A stretch of 11,836 nucleotides of DNA from Promethearchaeia archaeon. Its GTDB lineage: Archaea > Asgardarchaeota > Lokiarchaeia > Sigyniarchaeales > SOKP01. The stretch is taken from positions 1-11,836 of the forward strand of contig JAHQWJ010000004.1 of assembly GCA_029856125.1 (NCBI GenBank), given 5' to 3'. Of this stretch, positions 2,430 through 11,836 are shown one piece after another (position 1 is the stretch's first letter; the number at the start of each line of letters is the position of its first letter). The position numbers were made by a program, and so were the translations under genes. Under the pieces are notes generated by a model. That model worked only from the letters and a program-made list of their open reading frames with translations. It made no database searches and was not told the DNA's origin.

Positions 2430-2572
2430 AATATGGGAACCCGACACTATCTTGCATCTTAGGTTGTAGATATTAAAATAGCCATTGTTGGAAAAGATCA
2501 TAGAAAATCGATTATACAACCCATTAAATAACGAATAATAAAACTTTAATTTTTTATACCTTTGAATAATAT

Positions 2573-2911
2573 ATGCCAGATGAATTTGATTTTCATAAAT
2601 ACAAATCTATGGAAGAATATAGCAAAACAATGGAGGGAACTAAATATTTGCACGATTTATATTTAAAAGCGGTTAATCACCCCGTAAGGCGAGAAATCTT
2701 AGAAATTGTAAATAAAACAAAGAAAATTTCCAAGAAAGAGCTTCTCAAAAAGCTAATAGATTCTAATGTTATTAAAGACGAAAATCAGTTGATTTACAAT
2801 ATTGATTATTTACTCAAAGCGTTTTGTATTAATTCCATTAAAGAAGGTGATGACGGTGAAATTTTCTATGAAATTACTCAAAGCGGGAAAGTAGTAGAAT
2901 ATTTTGAATAA
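2573..2911 (+). CDS. ArsR-family-like helix-turn-helix protein
   Basis: 112 aa with LKAVNHPVRREILEIV (the ArsR-type 'P.R..IL..L' helix), a recognition helix QLIYNIDYLLKA and a wing IFYEITQSG. Confidence 0.75.
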   Translation: MPDEFDFHKYKSMEEYSKTMEGTKYLHDLYLKAVNHPVRREILEIVNKTKKISKKELLKKLIDSNVIKDENQLIYNIDYLLKAFCINSIKEGDDGEIFYEITQSGKVVEYFE

Positions 2912-2974
2912 TATTATGTTTAAAATCTTTACTTAATTTATTTTAGCAATTATTGCCGATCATCAAAAGAGCTT

Positions 2975-4258
2975 CTATAAAAAATTAATACTTTTTTCTT
3001 TACTAGAAAAAAGATCATTCTCAATTTGTTGCGTTAATCTTCTAATTTTCATAACTTTTGACGACGCAAAGTACTCAAAATCGAAATCTACGACATCCCC
3101 TGCGTTTCTTTCAGGGATCGGCATGAGTCGAGCCGTCAAAGGTTTATTTAAATTTAAAGAAATCGTACAAAGATCTAGTAAAATATAAAATAGCTCTTTT
3201 TCTGTTATATCGCCAGGTAACGGAACACAATCTAATCCTGTTCCGCACATTGTTGCATATAGTAGCAAAGTATCTAAATTAAAGTTGTTTTCGGATAAAC
3301 TTTTAGCAATTGTATAATCTTCAAGAACAGAAGGCATAAATCCAGAGAATCCTATGACTTTCTTCTTTTTTGGAATAGCCTTTTTTATTAAAGCTACGCC
3401 TATTAGCGATCCAGGAGCCCCAAAGTATTCAAGATTCAATTTTTCGAAGGCAGTCCCTATACTTTTTTCTACTGTAGGATAGGGTGCGGGAGAAAAATCT
3501 ATTCCACTGAATTCGATATTGTATTTATTTGCAACCTCCTCACAGATACCAACTAAATTGTCGTAAATTTCGTTAAATCTTATTGTCAATTTTTTATAAG
3601 CCTCTCCGACACTGTTTGAATCTTCGAAGACATTCACGACTTCATCGGCCATTTCCAAAGCTAGTCCAACTGATGGATTTTCTGAAATATGATAAGCTGC
3701 AGGGAAAAAGGGAGTGTCGGGGGAAACATTAGAACTGACGCAAAAGTTCAAATTTTTAAAAGGATCGGGAATGGATAATGATTTTATAATTTTGGCACTA
3801 GAACGAAGAGCAGATAAATTAATTCCGTTTTCCTTGGACGCTACGTGAACAGAAGTAAAGAACTTCTCTCTCCTCTTAATAAAATTAGGTACTTCATTTA
3901 ATAATAATTTCTCATATATTCCATATTTTTGTATCTGTTGGTCTGCTATTACAGCGCAAGAGGCAAAATAATCAAATTCATATTTTGATACGAGCCTTTC
4001 TATTAGTTCCAGCTGATCGTGGATTCTTATAAGGGTTTCATTTAAATTTTTAGAATAAAATTGCTGTTCGTAAGATAATATTGGTTGAGAGCACAATCTT
4101 TTCGTTTGCACTTCAATTTCTTTCTCGTTAAGCCTTTGAATAAGCTCATAATTGAAGGAGTAGAAATTTTGAAGATTACGTTCCATTCTTTCTTCAAGTT
4201 CTTTATCTTCAACCAAATATGGAATCTTGTTTCCAACGGTAATAGCTCGAACTTTCAT
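2975..4258 (-). CDS. DUF711 family protein (UPF0210-related, RNR/PFL-like barrel)
   Basis: 427 aa with the family motifs MKVRAIT, PFFPAAYH, GIDFSPAP, GFSGFMPSVLED, YATMCGTGLDCVPLPGD and KPLTARLMPIP. Confidence 0.85.
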   Translation of the reverse strand: MKVRAITVGNKIPYLVEDKELEERMERNLQNFYSFNYELIQRLNEKEIEVQTKRLCSQPILSYEQQFYSKNLNETLIRIHDQLELIERLVSKYEFDYFASCAVIADQQIQKYGIYEKLLLNEVPNFIKRREKFFTSVHVASKENGINLSALRSSAKIIKSLSIPDPFKNLNFCVSSNVSPDTPFFPAAYHISENPSVGLALEMADEVVNVFEDSNSVGEAYKKLTIRFNEIYDNLVGICEEVANKYNIEFSGIDFSPAPYPTVEKSIGTAFEKLNLEYFGAPGSLIGVALIKKAIPKKKKVIGFSGFMPSVLEDYTIAKSLSENNFNLDTLLLYATMCGTGLDCVPLPGDITEKELFYILLDLCTISLNLNKPLTARLMPIPERNAGDVVDFDFEYFASSKVMKIRRLTQQIENDLFSSKEKSINFL

Positions 4259-4285
4259 AATTTTTCAATTAAAATCCTTACATCT

Positions 4286-4399
4286 TTATAATTCATTTAA
4301 TTTTGCTTTTTTTTTCTCTTTTTTGTATTCTTCAACACGTGGTTTTTGAAATTCTCCCGGTTTTATTGGTCCTAATTTTCCAAGTTCAGTTTTAAAATT
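4286..4399 (-). other. In-frame continuation of hdrA-mvhD beyond the TAA at 4400-4402 (37 codons plus stop)
   Basis: Manual translation gives NFKTELGKLGPIKPGEFQKPRVEEYKKEKKKAKLNEL, then TAA at 4286-4288. F..EL.KLGP matches the usual MvhD C-terminal helix. Confidence 0.75.
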
Positions 4400-6685
4400 T
4401 TACACAACTTGTGCGAATTTTTCACCTTCTCCAGCAGAAATACTCTCTATCCTCACGCGTTTTTCATTTATCCCCGCCTCACCGAGGATTTCTTTAATAC
4501 TTTCATATCTATTGGCTGCTTTTATAAAACCCGTATCGTAATGACAATCTTGTGGGTGGCAACCTGCAATCAATACTCCATCGGCTCCATTAAAAAAAGC
4601 TTCAAATACTAATGATGGGTTTAGCATTGCAGTACACATAACCCGTATTGATCTTACATTGGTAGGATAATTTAATTTGCTTGTTCCAGCCAGATCTGCT
4701 CCCATGTAAGAACACCAATTGCAAAGGAATGCTACAATTAATGGATATTCAGATTTCTCACCCAAAATCGTAGTAATTTGAGCGTGTATCTGTTTTTTAG
4801 TAAAACCAGGAATATATAACGCATCAGTATGGCACATAGCTGCGCATGCCCCACATCCTGTACAATTCGCATTAGTGATATTTAGCTTATCGTTTTCTAT
4901 TTTTAATGCATTATATATGCATATGTTCTCACAAAGTCTGCATAAATCACATTCATCTGGATTAAAATATACAATATGAGGATCAAGTTCGACATACTCT
5001 TTGGACATTAGGGCAATTGCTTTTGCTGCCGCGCTTTCTGCGTGAGCTATACTATTGGGAATGTCTTTAGGACCTTGGATGGCTCCTGCTAAAAAGATAC
5101 CACTTACAGAAGTTTCAGAAGGCTTTATCTTAAGATGCTTTTCTAATAAAAATCCATAAGGATCTTGAGAAATGTTAAGCAATTGACTTAATTCTTCTGT
5201 GTTTTCAGCAGGCTCAATTCCAACTGCCAAAACAACGAGGTCAGCCTTATTTTCAAAGAGTCTATCATCTATTACGTCTTCACCTCGAATCAATAATTCA
5301 CCTGTCTCAGACAAGTCGTCTATAATAACGGCAGAGATATTACTTTTTATAAATCTAATACCAAAAACTTCTTGAGAACGATTATAAAACTCTTCACAGT
5401 TTTTTCCCATTGCTCGTATGTCGTTATAATAAATAGTAATTTCAGTCTCAGGATACTCCTTCTTTAACAGTACAGCTTGTTTAATTGAAACGTTGCAACA
5501 AACTTGACTACAATAATCGTGGTGAATCGCCCTATTTCGCGAACCTACACATAGAATAAATGAGACTCTTGAAGGTATCTCCCCATTAGACGGTCTCACG
5601 ATCTTTCCATGAGTCGGTCCATCGTTATTTAGCAGCCTTTCAACCTGCATAGTTGTAACTACATCCAAATATCTTTGATAATTAAATTCTCCAAGCAAAC
5701 TAGGATCAAATGTTTTCAACCCTGTTGCGGTTATTATGGTTCCAACTTCAAATTCGATATTTTCAGATGTTTGTTCGAAATCAATTGCGTCGCGATCACA
5801 AGCTTGAGCACAGGCTTTACATCCAATGCAATACTCCTCTAATATGTTAGGAATGAGAGGAATCGCCTGTGGATAAACTACATCTATTGCTTTTCTTGGA
5901 AAGAATGTGTCTTCAACGTCAATTGGACAAACATCTCTACATAAATTAAAGCAACCAACGCAAGTCTCTTCGTTAACAAAACGTGGCTTTTTCTTGACTT
6001 TTACGGTGAAGTTTCCTACATATCCTTCAACACTTTCTAAAATACTATAAGTCAATAACTCAATATTCGGATGATCCTTAACTTCTAACATTAATGGTCC
6101 AAGGATACATATGGAACAATCTAACGTAGGAAAAGTCTTGTCAAAAAGAGCCATTTTGCCTCCAATTGTTAAATCTTTTTCCACTAAGTAAACCTTGTAC
6201 CCCGCATCTGCTATAACTAGTGAGGCTTTAATCCCGGCAATCCCACCTCCGATAATTAGGGCTGAAGGATTGACTTTTGCTCGTTGAACTTCTAAGGGTT
6301 CGAGAAGTTTAACTTGTTCTAAAGCCATATTAATTTGATCGATTGCTTTCGTTGTAGCTTTCTCAGGACTATCGTTATGTACCCAAGAATTTTGTTCTCT
6401 GATGTTTGCAAAAGATATCAAGTATCGATTGATACCAGCCTTTTCTATTGTTTTTCTAAACAAAAATCCATGCAATTTAAAAGAACAAGCAGCAATTACG
6501 ACCCGGTCGATCTTATGTTCCTCTATCTCGTTAGTTATTTTATTTAAACCTAATTCTGCGCATAAATATTGATCTCCTATCACATGAACATCGGGATATT
6601 CTCCAAAATGGTCAATTAATTTGCTGTTATCAATTACTCCGCTAATATTCTTACCACAGTCGCAGATGAATAAGCCAATTTTCAA
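4400..6685 (-). CDS. hdrA: Heterodisulfide reductase subunit A fused to an MvhD [2Fe-2S] domain (HdrA-MvhD); C-terminus probably cut by a premature stop
   Basis: TTG start with GAGGGT upstream. HdrA motifs: ICDCGKNI, VVIAACS, NIREQNSWVH, FAD-binding IIGGGIAG, DKTFPTLDCSICIL, inserted ferredoxin CVGCFNLCRDVCP and CIGCKACAQAC, LCVGSR...YCSQVCC, GIFLAGAIQGPKDI, and C-terminal ferredoxin CDLCRLCENIC and CTGCGACAAMC. MvhD motifs: FLCNWCSYMGADLAG, IRVMCT, GADGVLIAGCHPQDCHY, ISAGEGEKFA. Confidence 0.93.
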   Translation of the reverse strand: MKIGLFICDCGKNISGVIDNSKLIDHFGEYPDVHVIGDQYLCAELGLNKITNEIEEHKIDRVVIAACSFKLHGFLFRKTIEKAGINRYLISFANIREQNSWVHNDSPEKATTKAIDQINMALEQVKLLEPLEVQRAKVNPSALIIGGGIAGIKASLVIADAGYKVYLVEKDLTIGGKMALFDKTFPTLDCSICILGPLMLEVKDHPNIELLTYSILESVEGYVGNFTVKVKKKPRFVNEETCVGCFNLCRDVCPIDVEDTFFPRKAIDVVYPQAIPLIPNILEEYCIGCKACAQACDRDAIDFEQTSENIEFEVGTIITATGLKTFDPSLLGEFNYQRYLDVVTTMQVERLLNNDGPTHGKIVRPSNGEIPSRVSFILCVGSRNRAIHHDYCSQVCCNVSIKQAVLLKKEYPETEITIYYNDIRAMGKNCEEFYNRSQEVFGIRFIKSNISAVIIDDLSETGELLIRGEDVIDDRLFENKADLVVLAVGIEPAENTEELSQLLNISQDPYGFLLEKHLKIKPSETSVSGIFLAGAIQGPKDIPNSIAHAESAAAKAIALMSKEYVELDPHIVYFNPDECDLCRLCENICIYNALKIENDKLNITNANCTGCGACAAMCHTDALYIPGFTKKQIHAQITTILGEKSEYPLIVAFLCNWCSYMGADLAGTSKLNYPTNVRSIRVMCTAMLNPSLVFEAFFNGADGVLIAGCHPQDCHYDTGFIKAANRYESIKEILGEAGINEKRVRIESISAGEGEKFAQVV

Positions 6686-6766
6686 TTTAAACCCTCAAAA
6701 TTGTATTCAATTTTCGTGAACCTATGAGTTACATAAAACGATGTTCATATTAATTGTTCCTAGTAT

Positions 6767-6790
6767 ATGATTAAAATTAATTTTAACCAT
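6767..6790. promoter_or_regulatory. Palindrome upstream of hdrA (candidate operator or terminator)
   Basis: ATGA-TTAAAATTAATTTTAA-CCAT: a perfect 16-bp palindrome at 6771-6786 that extends to 24 bp with one mismatched pair. It lies about 80-105 bp upstream of the hdrA start. Confidence 0.4.
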
Positions 6791-6828
6791 TGTTTAGAAT
6801 AATGATTATAATGAATTTGCTTATTTCG

Positions 6829-6930
6829 CATATCTTTTGATATAAAAGGGTACACTTTGAAGATATTAAAATCGTTTCGTCTCATTTCAAAAAAAAATTC
6901 TTTCTCCATATCGTACTCTCTAGTAGCCCA
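6829..6930 (-). pseudogene. Orphan 3' fragment of a YkgJ-family gene (direct-repeat copy 1)
   Basis: Translates without indels to WATREYDMEKEFFFEMRRNDFNIFKVYPFISKDM, versus WANEEYKMEKEYFFKMRRNDFNIFKVYPFLSKDM in the intact gene. Identity to 8475-8576 is 89/102 nt overall and 76/81 nt in the core 6829-6909. Confidence 0.9.
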
Positions 6931-6946
6931 ATCTAAAAATTAATCA

Positions 6947-8410
6947 CTAATAACCCTTTGGTGGCTGAAATTTTCCAATTACATCTGCCATCTGGCCTGC
7001 AAAATCTATTGGAGTTGCATCTTCTAAATAAGGTCCCACGATTTGAATGCTCACGGGAAGTCCCTCCTTTGTTAGTCCAATTGGAGCTGTGGTTGCTGGG
7101 AGACCAGTCAATGTTGCAAATGATATCCAAAATGATAGATCGTAATATGGTCTTGGACCTTCTTGAGTGATTAGGCGGCGTTTTTCAAAAGGTTTACTAT
7201 GGTCATGAGGAAATGCTGGAATAAATACTGTTGGGAGGAGAAATACATCGTGAGTACGGAAATAATCTTGCCATATTGCTCTGGCTGTTATCCGATAACT
7301 GCTAATCGCCTGAAAATACTTATGAGGGGCTGTCCAAGCCCAAGCAATCCTAGCTTCCTCGCTGCCATCCTTTCTTGCAGCAATTTCGCGAAATTTTTCT
7401 AAATGTTTGGTTCGTAGCTCATTGGCATATGTGGATGATAATAAGAAACGATAGGCTTCATATTGATCTGATTGATTGACACCAGAGGGCCAACCTTCTT
7501 CTAATTTTACTCCTGTCTTACGAAGTGCTTTAACAGCTTGAATTAGCACCTCTTTCACATCAGAAGTAACCGGACAAAGGATATCATCTAAGACATAACC
7601 AATTCGATAATCAGATAAACGAGTTCCTCGTGAAGGCGGTAGATTCCAGCTATACGCAATGGCATCAGCAGGATCTGGTCCTCCAATGATTTTGAGAGCT
7701 AATTTGAGATCAGCAGCACTCCGCGCGAGCGGTCCAATTACAGCTAAGTCTTCTGGTGGTATCAGGACTTCTGGGGGAGGTGGGATATGACCGCGCATCG
7801 GAACGACATTCAGGCTAGGTTTGTGACCGTATACCCCACAAAAATGTGCAGGGATCCGGATTGACCCCCCGATATCACTCCCTAATGATAGATAGCTTAA
7901 TCCGGAAGCAAGTGCGGCTGCTCCACCCCCTGTTGAGCCACCCGGGGTACGTTTATGATCCCAAGGATTATTAGTTGTACCAAAGATCTTATTGTAACTT
8001 TGCCAATCACCAGCCATTAATGGTGTGTTGGTATGACCTATGATGACCGCTCCTGCCCCAAGCAATCGTTCAACAACTACTGCATGTCTTTTTGGTATAT
8101 AAGTAGCTAATTCAGGTGATCCAGCGGTTGTAAGAACATTTGCTATTTCGAGCGTGTCTTTTACTGTGCAGGGGACGCCATGTAGAGGCCCCCATAGTTT
8201 TCCTTTTGCCAGTGCGTTATCTGCAGCGCGAGCCCGATTAAGGGCATCATCCTTGAGGATTGTAACAACTGCATTAAGAGCGGGGTTATATTTTTCTATA
8301 CGATCAAGAATATGTTTAGTAAGTTCTAAGGAAGATACTTCTCCTTTCTCGATAGCCCTTGCAGCTTCTAATGCGGAAATAAAAACAAAGTCAGATGGTT
8401 CTGTCGGCAA
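6947..8410 (-). CDS. Amidase-signature family enzyme
   Basis: 487 aa, TTG start. GPLHGVPCTVKD (Lys84), TPGGSTGG (Ser159) and GSDIGGSIRIPA (Ser183) give an intact Ser-cisSer-Lys triad. C-terminal GLPATTAP...GLPVSIQIVG is also present. Confidence 0.93.
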   Translation of the reverse strand: MPTEPSDFVFISALEAARAIEKGEVSSLELTKHILDRIEKYNPALNAVVTILKDDALNRARAADNALAKGKLWGPLHGVPCTVKDTLEIANVLTTAGSPELATYIPKRHAVVVERLLGAGAVIIGHTNTPLMAGDWQSYNKIFGTTNNPWDHKRTPGGSTGGGAAALASGLSYLSLGSDIGGSIRIPAHFCGVYGHKPSLNVVPMRGHIPPPPEVLIPPEDLAVIGPLARSAADLKLALKIIGGPDPADAIAYSWNLPPSRGTRLSDYRIGYVLDDILCPVTSDVKEVLIQAVKALRKTGVKLEEGWPSGVNQSDQYEAYRFLLSSTYANELRTKHLEKFREIAARKDGSEEARIAWAWTAPHKYFQAISSYRITARAIWQDYFRTHDVFLLPTVFIPAFPHDHSKPFEKRRLITQEGPRPYYDLSFWISFATLTGLPATTAPIGLTKEGLPVSIQIVGPYLEDATPIDFAGQMADVIGKFQPPKGY

Positions 8411-8419
8411 TGATTATTT

Positions 8420-8425
8420 CCTCCT
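8420..8425 (-). promoter_or_regulatory. Shine-Dalgarno sequence AGGAGG for the amidase
   Basis: CCTCCT on the + strand is AGGAGG on the - strand, 9 nt upstream of the TTG at 8408-8410. Confidence 0.7.
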
Positions 8426-8465
8426 GAGATTGTGCAATTTTTTTTTTACTCATTAGTAATCACGA

Positions 8466-9077
8466 TTATGAAACCATATCTTTTGATAAGAAAGGGTATA
8501 CTTTGAAGATATTAAAATCGTTTCGTCTCATTTTAAAAAAATATTCTTTCTCCATCTTGTATTCTTCGTTCGCCCATAGTATTATCTCCTCTCTGGAATA
8601 GAACTTACCTTTGTTTTCAAGCGAATTTTGGAGAGCGAGACATTTTTTTGAGTAATTTGTAAAGTTTTTAACGTTATTGATGAGCATGTTCCATCCAATA
8701 GGGAACGCGCGACATTGGAAGGGTCTGGCTTCGTGAATCGTACACTTATTATCTTTTAAGAAGTGGCAATGCTCATCCTCGCCCGTAAACCTAAACCCCA
8801 AAGATTTAAATCGGTAGGTTTTTCCTCGTTCTGCGCCGGGTTCCTTCCAAAAAAACGAATCGTTTACTATTTTAAGGTATTCCCTTACGAATTGTTTTAA
8901 TTCCGACGTGGTTTTTATCTTTAAGTGATCCGCTAGCCGTTTAATATCGTCTTCGTACAAATACACTTCTCCTTCCTTAAAACCGCGACAACAAGAACCG
9001 CACATTTCGCAGGTGAAATACACGCCATTTTCGAACTTCTTTGCCAGCTGAATTTTATGTGAAGACGAATCGGTCAC
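8466..9077 (-). CDS. YkgJ-family cysteine-cluster protein (CxxCxxCC, putative Zn/Fe-S binding)
   Basis: 203 aa, GTG start, with FTCEMCGSCC, VYLYEDDIKRL, CHFL, and CTIHEARPFQCRAFP followed by a later Cys. Confidence 0.88.
   Translation of the reverse strand: MTDSSSHKIQLAKKFENGVYFTCEMCGSCCRGFKEGEVYLYEDDIKRLADHLKIKTTSELKQFVREYLKIVNDSFFWKEPGAERGKTYRFKSLGFRFTGEDEHCHFLKDNKCTIHEARPFQCRAFPIGWNMLINNVKNFTNYSKKCLALQNSLENKGKFYSREEIILWANEEYKMEKEYFFKMRRNDFNIFKVYPFLSKDMVS
8475..8576 (-). repeat. Direct-repeat copy 2 (3' end of the intact YkgJ-family gene)
   Basis: Aligns without gaps to 6829-6930 at an offset of 1646 bp. It includes a 34-nt identical block (8500-8533 = 6854-6887). Confidence 0.92.
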
Positions 9078-9355
9078 TTACAATCAGACACAAAAATAAG
9101 TACTATTAGATAGATATTAGCTTTTAACGCATATTAATTTCTCGATATCGTCAAGGATCCTTCGAGGAGACCCCCTAGTTACCATCAGTTTGTTCTTTTT
9201 CTCTTGCCATAATTGCACAAAATCTTTAATTTCTGCCCTAATAATAAAATGAGTACAATTTAACTTGTTTTAATAGTCTTAATTCATTGATTATTCTATG
9301 AAAGAAGTAAAAACTAATCAAAAATTTGAACTGAGCTCTGGGTTCTTATGTCCTC

Positions 9356-11581
9356 ATGAAATTTGATGCATCGAAGTTTGAGGGTGAACTACATCTTATT
9401 AAAGAGTTTTTGGTAAGTATAGACATTCAAGAATCTGAAAACTATAAAGAATGGTATGCTTACTATGTGAAAATCTATGGAAAAAAATATACAAATTTTG
9501 ATTTATTTATTATTTATTCGTTAGTATACTTAATCTCTCAACTATTTATCGTTAAATTCGTGTTAAATCAAGATATAAATTCAAATCAAGTTAAGATTAC
9601 CCCTGGTTTTCTTAATTCAATCCCACAAAAAGTTAAAGAAAGGTTTAACTTTAATGGCGATATCGAAGTGCTATTTTTTTCTCCTATTATAAATGCACTT
9701 AAAGATTTAGGAACAAAAAAATTCGATCAACTTATTCTTTATGTTGTAGAGAGAGTGAACTTAATTAATACCCAACCGGAATACTTTTTTGATTACACTG
9801 TTCAAAATATTATACACGCTCATGTCAGGCATAAAGCTGGAGAGTTTTATACACCTCCTTTTATCGTGAAAAAAATGGTGGAAGACTCATACGATTTAGG
9901 TGAAAAAGTCATTGATCCGTGCTGTGGCTCAGGCAATTTTATTATTGAAATAATTAAAACAATTTTAAATGCGAATTACACCAAAAGAGAAAGAATCGAA
10001 GCGCTCAAAAAATTACATGGTATTGATATAAACCCAATATCGATCTATTTAACAAAATTAAACCTATTATATTTATTAAAAGAAGATTTTCGTCATCTTA
10101 ATTCCAATTTTATAACTACTGACTTTTTGTTTCAGAATAAGGCAGAAATAAAAGAAAACTTTGATTTAGTAATAGGTAATCCTCCTTGGTTTACTTTAAG
10201 GGATATAGAAAGCCGGAATTATCAAGAAAAAATCAAAAATTTAGCTGAAGAGCTTGAAATAAAACCACTTCCAAAAAATGTCTTGAATATTGAAATTGCC
10301 TCGCTCTTTTTCTATAAAGCCAAAATATCACTTATGAAAGACAACGCAAAAATGTTCTTTGTTATTACTAAGGGAGTTATAAACGGATCTCACGCAGCCC
10401 GATTTCGCAATTTTCAGGGATTTCATAATATAAAACTGTGGAAATTTACAAAACAGATTACTGATATATTCAATATAGATTTTATATGCATTTACGCTCA
10501 GAAGTCAGAAGAAGATCAAGTAATATATAATTTAGAAGTACCTTCCTTCCTCTTTTCAGTAAATTTAAACAGTAAAAAATTAAATTACTACGATTCAATA
10601 GATCTTTCCTTGGAAAAAACTGAAGAACTAGTTCCCTATAATACCGAAATGAAAGGAAATAAATATTATACAAATAAACTTGTTACTAAAGAAAAACAAC
10701 AACAGCTTATCCCTATTAAAACGAGTGAATACAAAAAGCTATTCCATAAAGGAGCAGATTTAAATCCAAGAAATTTAATTTTCTTTAAAAAGAGAATTCG
10801 AAATGATTCTCTCATAATAATAAATCCCGATCCGAGAATCTTCAAGAGAGCTAAAGAACCTTGGGTTAAAATTGAATTCTCTAACGAGATTATTGAAAAA
10901 GATTATATGTTTAAAGTGATAAAGAGTACAGAATTGGTTAAGTTTTATGTGTATGACTTCTATAACGTCTTCTTACCTTTAAAAAAGGAAGATTTAAGCT
11001 TTGACTATCATTCTTTGAAAGCACATGCTAAAAAGTTTTACGATAAAATTAATAAGGTTTATTTAAATAACAAAAAAGATTCGACAATGAACGAATCTTT
11101 AATGGATAACCTAAATCGGTGGTCTAAATTAATAAATGCTCGTCAAATATCTAAAATAAAAGTCGTGTATAATAATTCTGGATCAGTTGTTAACTCCGCA
11201 GTCGTTCAAGGAGATTTTCTTATTACCGGAGATTTAAGCTTTTATTCAACCAATAATATGAACGAAGCGTATTACTTATCTGCAATTCTAAATTCACCTT
11301 TAATGACAAAACAAGTTCAGATAAAGAAGAGTTCAAGGCATATTTTTAAAATCCCGTTTGAGATACCTATAAAAATTTACGATGAGAATAATGAAAATCA
11401 TAGAAAACTTGCTGAATTAGCAAAGAAGGCTCATAAAATATCTGAAACCACTACACTCGAATTAAAAAAGAAAAACACTCAAACTATATCAAAAAATAAA
11501 ATCCAATCAATTCTTAGTAAGGATTTAGCACTAATTTTGAATGAAATCGATGAAATTGTAACTAATGAATTGAAGACTTAG
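9356..11581 (+). CDS. N6-adenine DNA methyltransferase, gamma class (N-6 DNA methylase / Eco57I-TaqI-like) with a C-terminal target-recognition region
   Basis: 741 aa with GEFYTP (motif X), VIDPCCGSGNF (motif I), GIDINP (motif II) and FDLVIGNPPW (motif IV) in gamma order. The C-terminal KVVY...EAYYLSAILNS pattern is typical of TaqI-like TRDs. Confidence 0.88.
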   Translation: MKFDASKFEGELHLIKEFLVSIDIQESENYKEWYAYYVKIYGKKYTNFDLFIIYSLVYLISQLFIVKFVLNQDINSNQVKITPGFLNSIPQKVKERFNFNGDIEVLFFSPIINALKDLGTKKFDQLILYVVERVNLINTQPEYFFDYTVQNIIHAHVRHKAGEFYTPPFIVKKMVEDSYDLGEKVIDPCCGSGNFIIEIIKTILNANYTKRERIEALKKLHGIDINPISIYLTKLNLLYLLKEDFRHLNSNFITTDFLFQNKAEIKENFDLVIGNPPWFTLRDIESRNYQEKIKNLAEELEIKPLPKNVLNIEIASLFFYKAKISLMKDNAKMFFVITKGVINGSHAARFRNFQGFHNIKLWKFTKQITDIFNIDFICIYAQKSEEDQVIYNLEVPSFLFSVNLNSKKLNYYDSIDLSLEKTEELVPYNTEMKGNKYYTNKLVTKEKQQQLIPIKTSEYKKLFHKGADLNPRNLIFFKKRIRNDSLIIINPDPRIFKRAKEPWVKIEFSNEIIEKDYMFKVIKSTELVKFYVYDFYNVFLPLKKEDLSFDYHSLKAHAKKFYDKINKVYLNNKKDSTMNESLMDNLNRWSKLINARQISKIKVVYNNSGSVVNSAVVQGDFLITGDLSFYSTNNMNEAYYLSAILNSPLMTKQVQIKKSSRHIFKIPFEIPIKIYDENNENHRKLAELAKKAHKISETTTLELKKKNTQTISKNKIQSILSKDLALILNEIDEIVTNELKT

Positions 11582-11673
11582 CTAAATTTAGATATAATAA
11601 AATAAAAGGGCAAATTTGTATTATTAATAATAAATTGGTTATTAGGATTAATTTTTAAAATACACGATACATA

Positions 11674-11836
11674 ATGAGGAACTTCGTTTTTAAAATACTC
11701 GTAGGCGGTGACGGCGCAGCAGGTAAAACCACGCTACTCAGAAAATTCGTAGATGGTACCTTCGACGCGTCTAGCATTGCAACAGTGGGAGTCGATTTCT
11801 TCATTAAACAAGTAATATATGAAAATGTCGGAACTT
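11674..11836 (+). CDS. Ras-superfamily, Rab-like small GTPase (5' part, truncated by the window edge)
   Basis: Manual translation: MRNFVFKILVGGDGAAGKTTLLRKFVDGTFDASSIATVGVDFFIKQVIYENVGT. It has the G1 motif GDGAAGKT, the G2 Thr and a RabF1-like VGVDF. It is absent from the supplied ORF track. Confidence 0.92.
   Translation, partial: MRNFVFKILVGGDGAAGKTTLLRKFVDGTFDASSIATVGVDFFIKQVIYENVGT

Follow-up and report, generated by a model that had tools for sequence, protein, structure and literature searches.

A direct repeat around an amidase gene in an Asgard archaeon: a probable by-product of serial gene displacement upstream of hdrA

The locus and its repeat

The window analysed here is the complete 11,836-bp contig (C4) of the metagenome-assembled genome (MAG) G000, which belongs to an AT-rich Asgard archaeon (32.7% GC; 3.69 Mb in 153 contigs, 99% complete, 6% contamination). 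Its minus strand carries genes for a CxxCxxCC/YkgJ protein, an amidase, an HdrA–MvhD fusion and a DUF711 protein, and its plus strand a gene for a type IIG-like N6-adenine methyltransferase (9356–11581). The subject of this report is a direct repeat whose two copies bracket the intact amidase gene. The genus set searched comprised 42 genomes, 41 besides that of the window, and loci were scored where the matching contig had been assembled. All the genomes compared are MAGs, and assembled sequence only was used.

The repeat copies, at 6829–6930 and 8475–8576, are 102 nt long and align without gaps at 89 of 102 positions (87%). The alignment contains one identical block of 34 nt, the two starts lie 1646 nt apart and the likeness stops at both borders of the 102 nt. 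A repeat search found no other long repeat in the window, and the 3.69-Mb genome holds no match to the repeat beyond these two copies. The original prediction, made from the window alone, had described the repeat in these terms, and the repeat search and an alignment with flanks bear it out; open reading frame (ORF) and Pfam calls do the same for the predicted minus-strand order of intact YkgJ, amidase, orphan YkgJ tail and hdrA. The interval between hdrA and the methyltransferase gene contains the following features, in which A and B denote two lineages of YkgJ gene and G007 and G056 are congeners.

6817–6936, minus strand: orphan, the decaying 3' remnant (codons ~160 to end) of the resident YkgJ-B gene, with 91% homology to the YkgJ–hdrA region of G007; contains repeat copy A (6829–6930)
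6937–6946, minus strand: right junction, from the amidase stop to the orphan; amidase homology ends at 6950/6951 and G007 homology starts at 6936
6947–8410, minus strand: intact amidase of the amidase-signature family, the current occupant of the slot (Pfam, NCBIfam)
8411–8436, minus strand: the amidase's own leader, with GGAGG at 8420–8424, ahead of a TTG start; nucleotide homology to amidase genes elsewhere begins at about 8425–8429
8437–8463, minus strand: relic of a GH4 glycosidase gene, 27 nt of leader and first codons, matching the start of the G056 GH4 gene with two mismatches
8466–9077, minus strand: intact YkgJ (CxxCxxCC) of the A lineage, with an A-type body and a local B-type tail (Pfam PF03692)
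8475–8576, minus strand: repeat copy B, comprising the 34 codons of the intact YkgJ that precede its own terminal codons (repeat search, alignments)
9120–9245, minus strand: relic of gene X, its last 42 codons, with the truncation point at the left junction of the foreign tract (tblastn with residues 743–784 of the G056 protein: 83%, E = 3e-17)

Two YkgJ lineages side by side

The closest relative at this locus is G007; window and G007 are collinear over 2500–6936 (91% nt identity) and over 9239–11836 (89.5%). In G007 an intact YkgJ gene directly adjoins the hdrA upstream region. Homology between the two genomes, followed from hdrA, passes through the entire orphan and ends at 6936. Compared with the orphan, the G007 tail is 92% identical, the neighbouring copy 87% and the other A tails 65–77%. 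The terminal codons of the orphan are of the G007 type, with the stop lost by a change from TAA to CAA. Eight substitutions separate it from G007, and six of the seven differing codons are non-synonymous and one is synonymous, unlike functional YkgJ gene pairs, where synonymous changes equal or outnumber non-synonymous ones. Continuous homology, greater likeness to G007, a G007-type end and an excess of non-synonymous changes together identify the orphan as the decaying 3' remnant of the resident gene, YkgJ-B. It resembles the resident orthologue over its whole length. The repeat copies are thus the tails of two different YkgJ genes, as had been predicted in preference to a local duplication; one gene is alive and the other displaced and decaying. 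Serial displacement should leave just such a truncated resident remnant, whose orthologue is still intact in a close relative and which is collinear with that relative's downstream DNA.

The window is not alone in this. Relics of B tails, varying in length from ~20 to ~230 nt, lie ahead of hdrA in 10 genomes. The YkgJ remnants begin at codon ~122 in G013, at 155–161 in the window and in the first fragment of contig L146 (described below), at 183 in the second fragment of L146 and in G056 and G049, and at 195 in G016.

The intact YkgJ gene has a different history. Its product matches PF03692 over residues 23–146 (E = 5.2e-13) and includes CEMCGSCC, as expected of the family. A maximum-likelihood tree built on the N-terminal 300 nt unites the A genes of G000, G003, G049, G056, G044, G013, G016, G004 and G008 in one clade (97/99) and places the B genes in other groups. 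The A gene of the window is 66% identical to the G007 B gene over its 5' 438 nt and 88% identical over its last 101 nt (Fisher p 4e-6). Across G000, G003, G049 and G056 the corresponding values are 64–67% over the first 438 aligned nt and 88–91% over the last 101 nt (Fisher p 1e-6 to 1e-7), and the switch falls within ~20 nt of the point at which the orphan starts; in the A gene of G013 both parts show 67% identity. All these local-type tails are ~10% diverged, the same as the flanks. The alignments suggest that YkgJ-A acquired local B-type sequence for its last ~100 nt, by gene conversion or crossover, and this exchange would be why the two tails are 87% alike when the bodies are ~65% alike. 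An old exchange would account for the position of the switch, for the occurrence of the local tail in four genomes, three of them without the amidase, and for the agreement between tail and flank divergence. The repeat would thus be older than the amidase and independent of it, and it could still mediate amidase loss.

YkgJ-A also stands apart in composition: GC content at third codon positions (GC3) is 0.44, against 0.25–0.29 in all other genes of the window, the amidase included, and ~0.27 for its neighbours. The bias is common to all A-lineage genes, with values of 0.42–0.53 in the clade of the G000 type against 0.25–0.34 in B genes, which hints at an outside origin of the A genes.

The other half of the displaced gene is retained in related genomes. 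Five of them (G013, G014, G049, G056 and G044) carry an A gene plus an N-terminal B fragment (codons 5 to ~120) beside the methyltransferase gene. In the tree each fragment falls among the B genes of its own species group, those of G049 and G056 with G007 (99/98) and those of G013, G014 and G044 with G011 (93/95). G013 retains in addition the matching C-terminal B fragment (codons 122–202) before hdrA. The junction that follows the N-terminal fragment is identical in four genomes (G013, G014, G049 and G056), and this common junction points to a B gene split by an insertion that brought its own YkgJ-A. In these relatives the larger A-module consists of gene X, two unknown ORFs of 181 and 195 aa, and YkgJ-A; gene X is intact upstream of YkgJ-A in G056 (784 aa; L241:8193–10547). 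The N-terminal B fragments remain open over 117–128 codons, CxxCxxCC included, in all five genomes, with 70–91% nt identity (L025:11917–12270, L031:1269–1622, L242:7193–7555, L244:1266–1652 and L245:8497–8774), and they may still be expressed and under selection.

Measured against G007, the tract replaced in the window runs from 6937 to 9238 (2.3 kb) and substitutes for 511 bp of G007, with the junction to G007-like DNA at 9238/9239. It holds all of YkgJ-A and the gene X relic; the N-terminal B fragment and most of X are deleted. The foreign DNA is therefore not the single-gene cassette of 1646 bp that had been envisaged.

A slot with changing occupants

The stretch between the YkgJ stop and the B remnant was expected, if it is a site of gene acquisition, to be empty in some relatives and to hold other cargo in others, and both states were found. 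YkgJ is followed directly by hdrA, across an interval of 140–206 nt, in at least nine congeners (G007, G008, G016, G020, G021, G012, G017, G006 and G009). Elsewhere the occupants are as follows.

Amidase: window and L146
GH4 glycosidase: G056
Isochorismatase-like hydrolase: G049 and G044, in G044 together with amylase and CAAX-protease-like genes
Alpha-amylase-like gene: G011 and G013
ORF of 127 aa: G004
Membrane ORF of 224 aa: G019
ORF of 672–678 aa, 48–84% aa identity among the four: G015, G022, G023 and G002

In G003 a gene for an ArsR-like regulator and other ORFs, read by eye and not profile-tested, follow YkgJ; no copy of the hdrA cluster was found in this 83%-complete assembly.

Traces of earlier occupants remain. 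The 27-nt GH4 relic lies immediately upstream of the amidase leader, occurs also in L146 and was matched in none of 200 shuffles; it indicates that the amidase replaced a GH4 gene. The heptamer GTGATTA is present at both amidase junctions, at 6937–6946 and at 8457–8463. What earlier occupants left behind (27 nt of GH4, 42 codons of gene X) and the microhomology of the two joins are further marks of serial displacement.

Contig L146 is a 3.8-kb metagenome contig from an independent assembly, with 91% nt identity to the window and 95% aa identity in the amidase. Like the window, it runs from the YkgJ tail end through the GH4 relic and leader to the amidase, and then by way of a B-tail remnant, shorter here and still with its TAA stop, to hdrA. 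This agreement in order shows that the position of the amidase is not a mis-join. The exact amidase/orphan junction of the window is seen in the window only, that of L146 being different. The recovered stretch of L146 contains no intact YkgJ; upstream are another YkgJ 3' fragment and an AsnC-like ORF, an arrangement that would reflect further turnover at the locus. L146 has three separate YkgJ 3' fragments within 2 kb (1328–1453, 1589–1640 and 3175–3235), and its AsnC-like ORF, with a Cys-rich C-terminus, takes the YkgJ position upstream. In G056 (L241:5990–6060) and L146 (3160–3190), ~30 nt between the cargo and the short B remnant are common to both and encode an in-frame N-terminus of Rossmann type (KIAVIGSGS...), which looks like the relic of another earlier occupant.

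Serial displacement

The breakpoints of homology, the two gene lineages, the mosaic gene, the relics and the alternative cargos are all visible in the alignments. The explanation that we favour, with a probability of roughly two in three, is serial displacement by homologous and illegitimate recombination at a hotspot, in which the repeat is a by-product of gene displacement and not a recombination site, and which requires no dedicated recombinase. In the ancestor, as still in G007 and most of the genus, the methyltransferase gene would have stood divergent from YkgJ-B, with hdrA following the latter. A foreign tract with gene X and its own YkgJ-A would have landed inside YkgJ-B, leaving the N-terminal half of B beside the methyltransferase gene, as in G013, G014, G049, G056 and G044. 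The DNA from the YkgJ-A stop to the B remnant would then have turned into a slot whose content was swapped among related Thorarchaeia, with an amidase in the window and L146, GH4 in G056, an isochorismatase-like hydrolase in G049 and G044 and an unknown ORF in G013. In the ancestor of G000, G003, G049 and G056 the last ~100 nt of YkgJ-A would have been exchanged for the local B-type tail; in the lineage of the window the amidase would have displaced GH4, leaving 27 nt, and a separate deletion would have removed the N-terminal half of B and most of gene X. Both the order of these events and the manner of each step are inferred: homologous recombination would act on one side and an illegitimate or microhomology join on the other, a scheme with which GTGATTA at both amidase junctions is consistent.

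Homology-facilitated illegitimate recombination (HFIR) from a relative had been one of the two routes named in the original prediction. It was the right kind of mechanism; the history, however, has several steps, and the likeness of the tails stems from an older exchange common to four genomes.

Several points weigh against this account. The B gene of G007 is intact, though the more distant G013, G014 and G044 share the split state, and this requires a long-lived polymorphism, restoration by recombination or independent insertions at one site. The difference between the junctions of the window and of L146 leaves at least one further event unaccounted for. Distant genomes have tail-plus-cargo units in common (the isochorismatase gene goes with one tail type, the spacer and GH4 with another), and a circle or cassette route would likewise predict such shared units. 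Finally, the genomes are all MAGs, known from their assemblies only, and G000 carries 6% contamination.

Alternative explanations

The least improbable alternative, still an unlikely one, is that the YkgJ tail is a portable homology arm, possibly in connection with a larger mobile module. Units of a tail and one cargo gene would loop out between tails and re-enter other Thorarchaeia by a single crossover in the YkgJ tail, and Asgard archaea would then possess a cassette-exchange system that needs no dedicated recombinase. The larger module of gene X, YkgJ-A and slot may itself be an insertion element whose target is YkgJ at codon ~120 and which brings a substitute copy of that target; the intact B gene of G007 would then represent an empty site. 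The intact B gene in G007, the open N-terminal fragments and a recurring 25-nt motif at the left end of the module (see below) leave room for a mobile element with a spare target copy.

Slightly less probable is the explicit shuttle of the original prediction, a Campbell-type integration in which a circle of YkgJ tail and amidase enters by a single crossover in the resident YkgJ tail and can be released again between the repeats. Correctly oriented direct repeats do surround one gene, the crossover could have taken place in the 34-nt identical block, each tail belongs to the local type (87–92% identical to G007) and tail-plus-cargo units recur in different genomes. A single crossover should leave a hybrid, and the orphan is G007-like throughout, including the part 5' of the block. 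The remnants in other genomes begin at different codons; the GH4 relic between tail and amidase marks an earlier occupant that was replaced, not an insertion of tail plus amidase; and the local-type A tail is also present in G003, G049 and G056, without the amidase. The deletion product that release would generate (A body, B end, hdrA) was not found in the 42 genomes of the genus where the matching contig was assembled. On this evidence the Campbell integration of a small circle is improbable.

A site-specific mobile element or integron-like cassette, with an attachment (att) site in the YkgJ tail and an integrase encoded elsewhere, is more doubtful again. It would suit the several different single genes in the same slot and the 25-nt motif at the left end of the larger A-module, which is found at other loci too, and integrons have been reported in Archaea, Asgard MAGs among them (PMC9668308). 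No integrase, transposase, recombinase or IntI domain was found in any ORF of the window, and the DNA between the repeats holds only the amidase. Single-strand folds gave no attC-like hairpin at the cassette ends, with z-scores of -0.3 and -1.2 for the two strands of 6880–6990 and of 0.2 for 8400–8500. The repeat search showed no inverted repeat near either amidase junction, a scan of the window against Rfam gave no match, and no common att core was found at the junctions of independent insertions, where the remnants start at codons ~122, 155–161, 183 and 195. In its other contexts the amidase lacks flanking repeats.

There is little to recommend a local tandem duplication of the YkgJ tail followed by insertion of the amidase: the copies are adjacent and in the same orientation, but the orphan is nearer to the G007 gene (92%) than to the neighbouring copy (87%), ends with G007-type last codons and not those of the intact gene, and is collinear with the G007 YkgJ–hdrA spacer, and related genomes retain the matching N-terminal half of the displaced gene. 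Least probable of all is a strain-chimeric assembly, which the 153 contigs, the 6% contamination, the short contig that makes up the whole window and the 34-nt identical block might suggest, but collapse through the block would yield one repeat copy and not two, the junction at 6937–6946 has no long k-mer common to alternative arrangements, and the independently assembled L146 repeats the order from YkgJ tail and leader through the amidase to remnant and hdrA.

Relation to known systems

The mechanism that we favour, serial displacement, is not itself new; the locus would add a case from an Asgard archaeon, in which a gene has been displaced at a hotspot and its 3' end left orphaned. Serial displacement is known at the loci for Rhs, contact-dependent inhibition (CDI) and type VI secretion system (T6SS) effectors, where it has been attributed to HFIR and ordinary homologous exchange (PMC5361080, PMC3240628). 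As in the present locus, at these effector-immunity loci an incoming module with its own gene copy pushes the resident 3' end downstream, a truncated orphan persists in the same orientation, events are repeated and leave nested relics, and each exchange joins homologously on one side and illegitimately on the other (Kirchberger et al. 2017, PMC5361080). The present locus differs from them in having no toxin/immunity logic, the displaced gene encoding a small Cys-rich metal-binding protein and the cargo being ordinary hydrolases, and in its Asgard host. No partner gene accounts for the persistence of the orphan, whose survival is probably due to its position directly against the conserved region upstream of hdrA.

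As far as it is described in the two articles that cite the primary work (de Vries & Wackernagel 2002, Prudhomme et al. 2002 and Meier & Wackernagel 2003, as cited in PMC5361080 and PMC3240628), HFIR anchors foreign DNA by one homologous flank, joins it by microhomology at the other end and replaces resident DNA. GTGATTA at both amidase junctions fits that description. The difference is that, by the same accounts, HFIR was shown experimentally in bacteria, whereas here it is deduced from comparative anatomy alone. We know of no experimental demonstration of HFIR in Asgard archaea.

The concept of integration hotspots between conserved core genes, reportedly that of Oliveira and colleagues (2017), also applies. 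One interval between syntenic core genes holds different accessory genes in relatives and is empty in others; the present interval is distinctive in being very small, in taking one gene at a time and in holding a second copy of the flanking gene. With elements that target the 3' ends of genes, such as tRNA and tmRNA islands, and with integron cassettes, which are reported from archaea including Asgard MAGs (PMC9668308), the locus shares a 3'-end direct repeat around acquired DNA and single-gene cargo. Unlike them, it has no integrase, fixed core or attC fold, and its remnants start at varying points.

Little is known of single events of gene gain and loss in Asgard archaea, and the locus is a clean record of turnover in many genomes of Thorarchaeia, with empty sites, at least five cargos, nested relics of displaced genes, a mosaic gene and two lineages of one gene side by side. 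If the reading given above is right, related Thorarchaeia exchange small metabolic genes by recombination, with no mobile-element apparatus in sight, and the codon usage of these genes is already host-like. For annotation it is a caution that a repeat around a single gene can mimic an att duplication and yet arise, as it would here, from gene displacement.

The amidase gene

The amidase belongs to the amidase-signature family, matching PF01425 over residues 29–465 (E = 5e-99; 332.8 bits against a cutoff of 27) and NF004816 with 526.5 bits against a cutoff of 503. The translation contains TVKD, GGSTGG and GGSIRIP, which would supply the Ser–cisSer–Lys catalytic residues of the family: Lys in VKD, Ser in GGS.GG and Ser in GGSIR.

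Orthologues occur in two of the 41 other genomes of the genus, G013 (77%) and G014 (83% over a 209-residue piece at a contig edge), and on the assembled stretches neither lies beside YkgJ or hdrA. Further Thorarchaeia contigs carry the gene at 73–82% identity in at least four unrelated neighbourhoods. Nucleotide homology to the orthologues elsewhere is confined to 6951–8428, the coding sequence and ~15 nt, and no flanking repeats were found around the gene in these other contexts. The next relatives (~64%) are from Rokubacteria/Methylomirabilota, Acidobacteriota and Bathyarchaeota, and the GC3 of the bacterial and Bathyarchaeota genes is 0.73–0.88. The amidase gene has 44% GC overall and a GC3 of 0.285, similar to its neighbours, and the Thorarchaeia orthologues are alike in this. 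A recent import from a high-GC bacterium was considered and is rejected by this host-like GC3, from which it follows that the amidase has long been resident in AT-rich Thorarchaeia.

The conserved flanks, gene X and the larger module

The interval is framed by the following features.

4400–6685, minus strand: HdrA2-type heterodisulfide reductase subunit A fused to MvhD/FlpD, the conserved right flank (Pfam, NCBIfam)
6686–6816, minus strand: hdrA upstream region, conserved in all congeners (11-genome alignment)
9242–9355, no strand assigned: methyltransferase–YkgJ intergenic DNA, still collinear with G007 (blastn of 9239–11836 against G007, 89.5%)
9356–11581, plus strand: N6-adenine methyltransferase, type IIG-like, without nuclease domain, the conserved left flank (Pfam N6_Mtase and Eco57I)

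Both flanking genes are stable across the genus. The hdrA product shows 74–93% aa identity, and the methyltransferase gene is syntenic in every congener examined, with 41–87% aa identity of its product. The ~130 nt upstream of hdrA are strongly conserved genus-wide and, in the genomes examined, are always preceded by at least ~20 nt of an old YkgJ-B tail. The presence of this relic in every genome examined suggests that sequences controlling hdrA extend into what was once the 3' end of YkgJ-B.

The PADLOC match of the methyltransferase to REase_MTase_IIG spans profile positions 602–1091 only. The product of gene X has a weak C-terminal match to Cas4-like PD-(D/E)XK nucleases (Pfam, PADLOC), and gene X and the nuclease-less type IIG-like methyltransferase may be a split restriction-modification or defence pair. 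A paralogue of gene X with 30% identity is present on contig C84 of G000.

G003 has almost the same deletion junction as the window, with a TnpB element placed exactly there (L024:7071–8300, equivalent to 9241/9242 of the window). The TnpB protein, of the RNA-guided endonuclease family, is 409 aa long (NCBIfam E = 3.5e-51) and lies between the X relic and the methyltransferase-proximal spacer. In the window the same junction lacks the element, and X is shorter there by ~14 nt. The extra 1.3 kb of G003 had been considered as a candidate for gene X and was rejected, this DNA being the TnpB element (IS200/IS605-type) and the real X being that of G056 and G049. The TnpB element may have been involved in the deletion of the X and B DNA.

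The left end of the YkgJ-A module is marked by a perfectly conserved 25-nt motif, ACTTTCGTATAATATATCAAGATAC, and by ~90 nt of conserved, repeat-rich sequence downstream of it (L025:11785–11905, L242:7560–7640, L244:1200–1270, L247:8200–8305 and L248:5206–5327). An Rfam scan of the left end of the module in G013 gave no match. The motif recurs at other loci in G007 and G049, not in G000, and could be a promoter with a small RNA or the end of an element.

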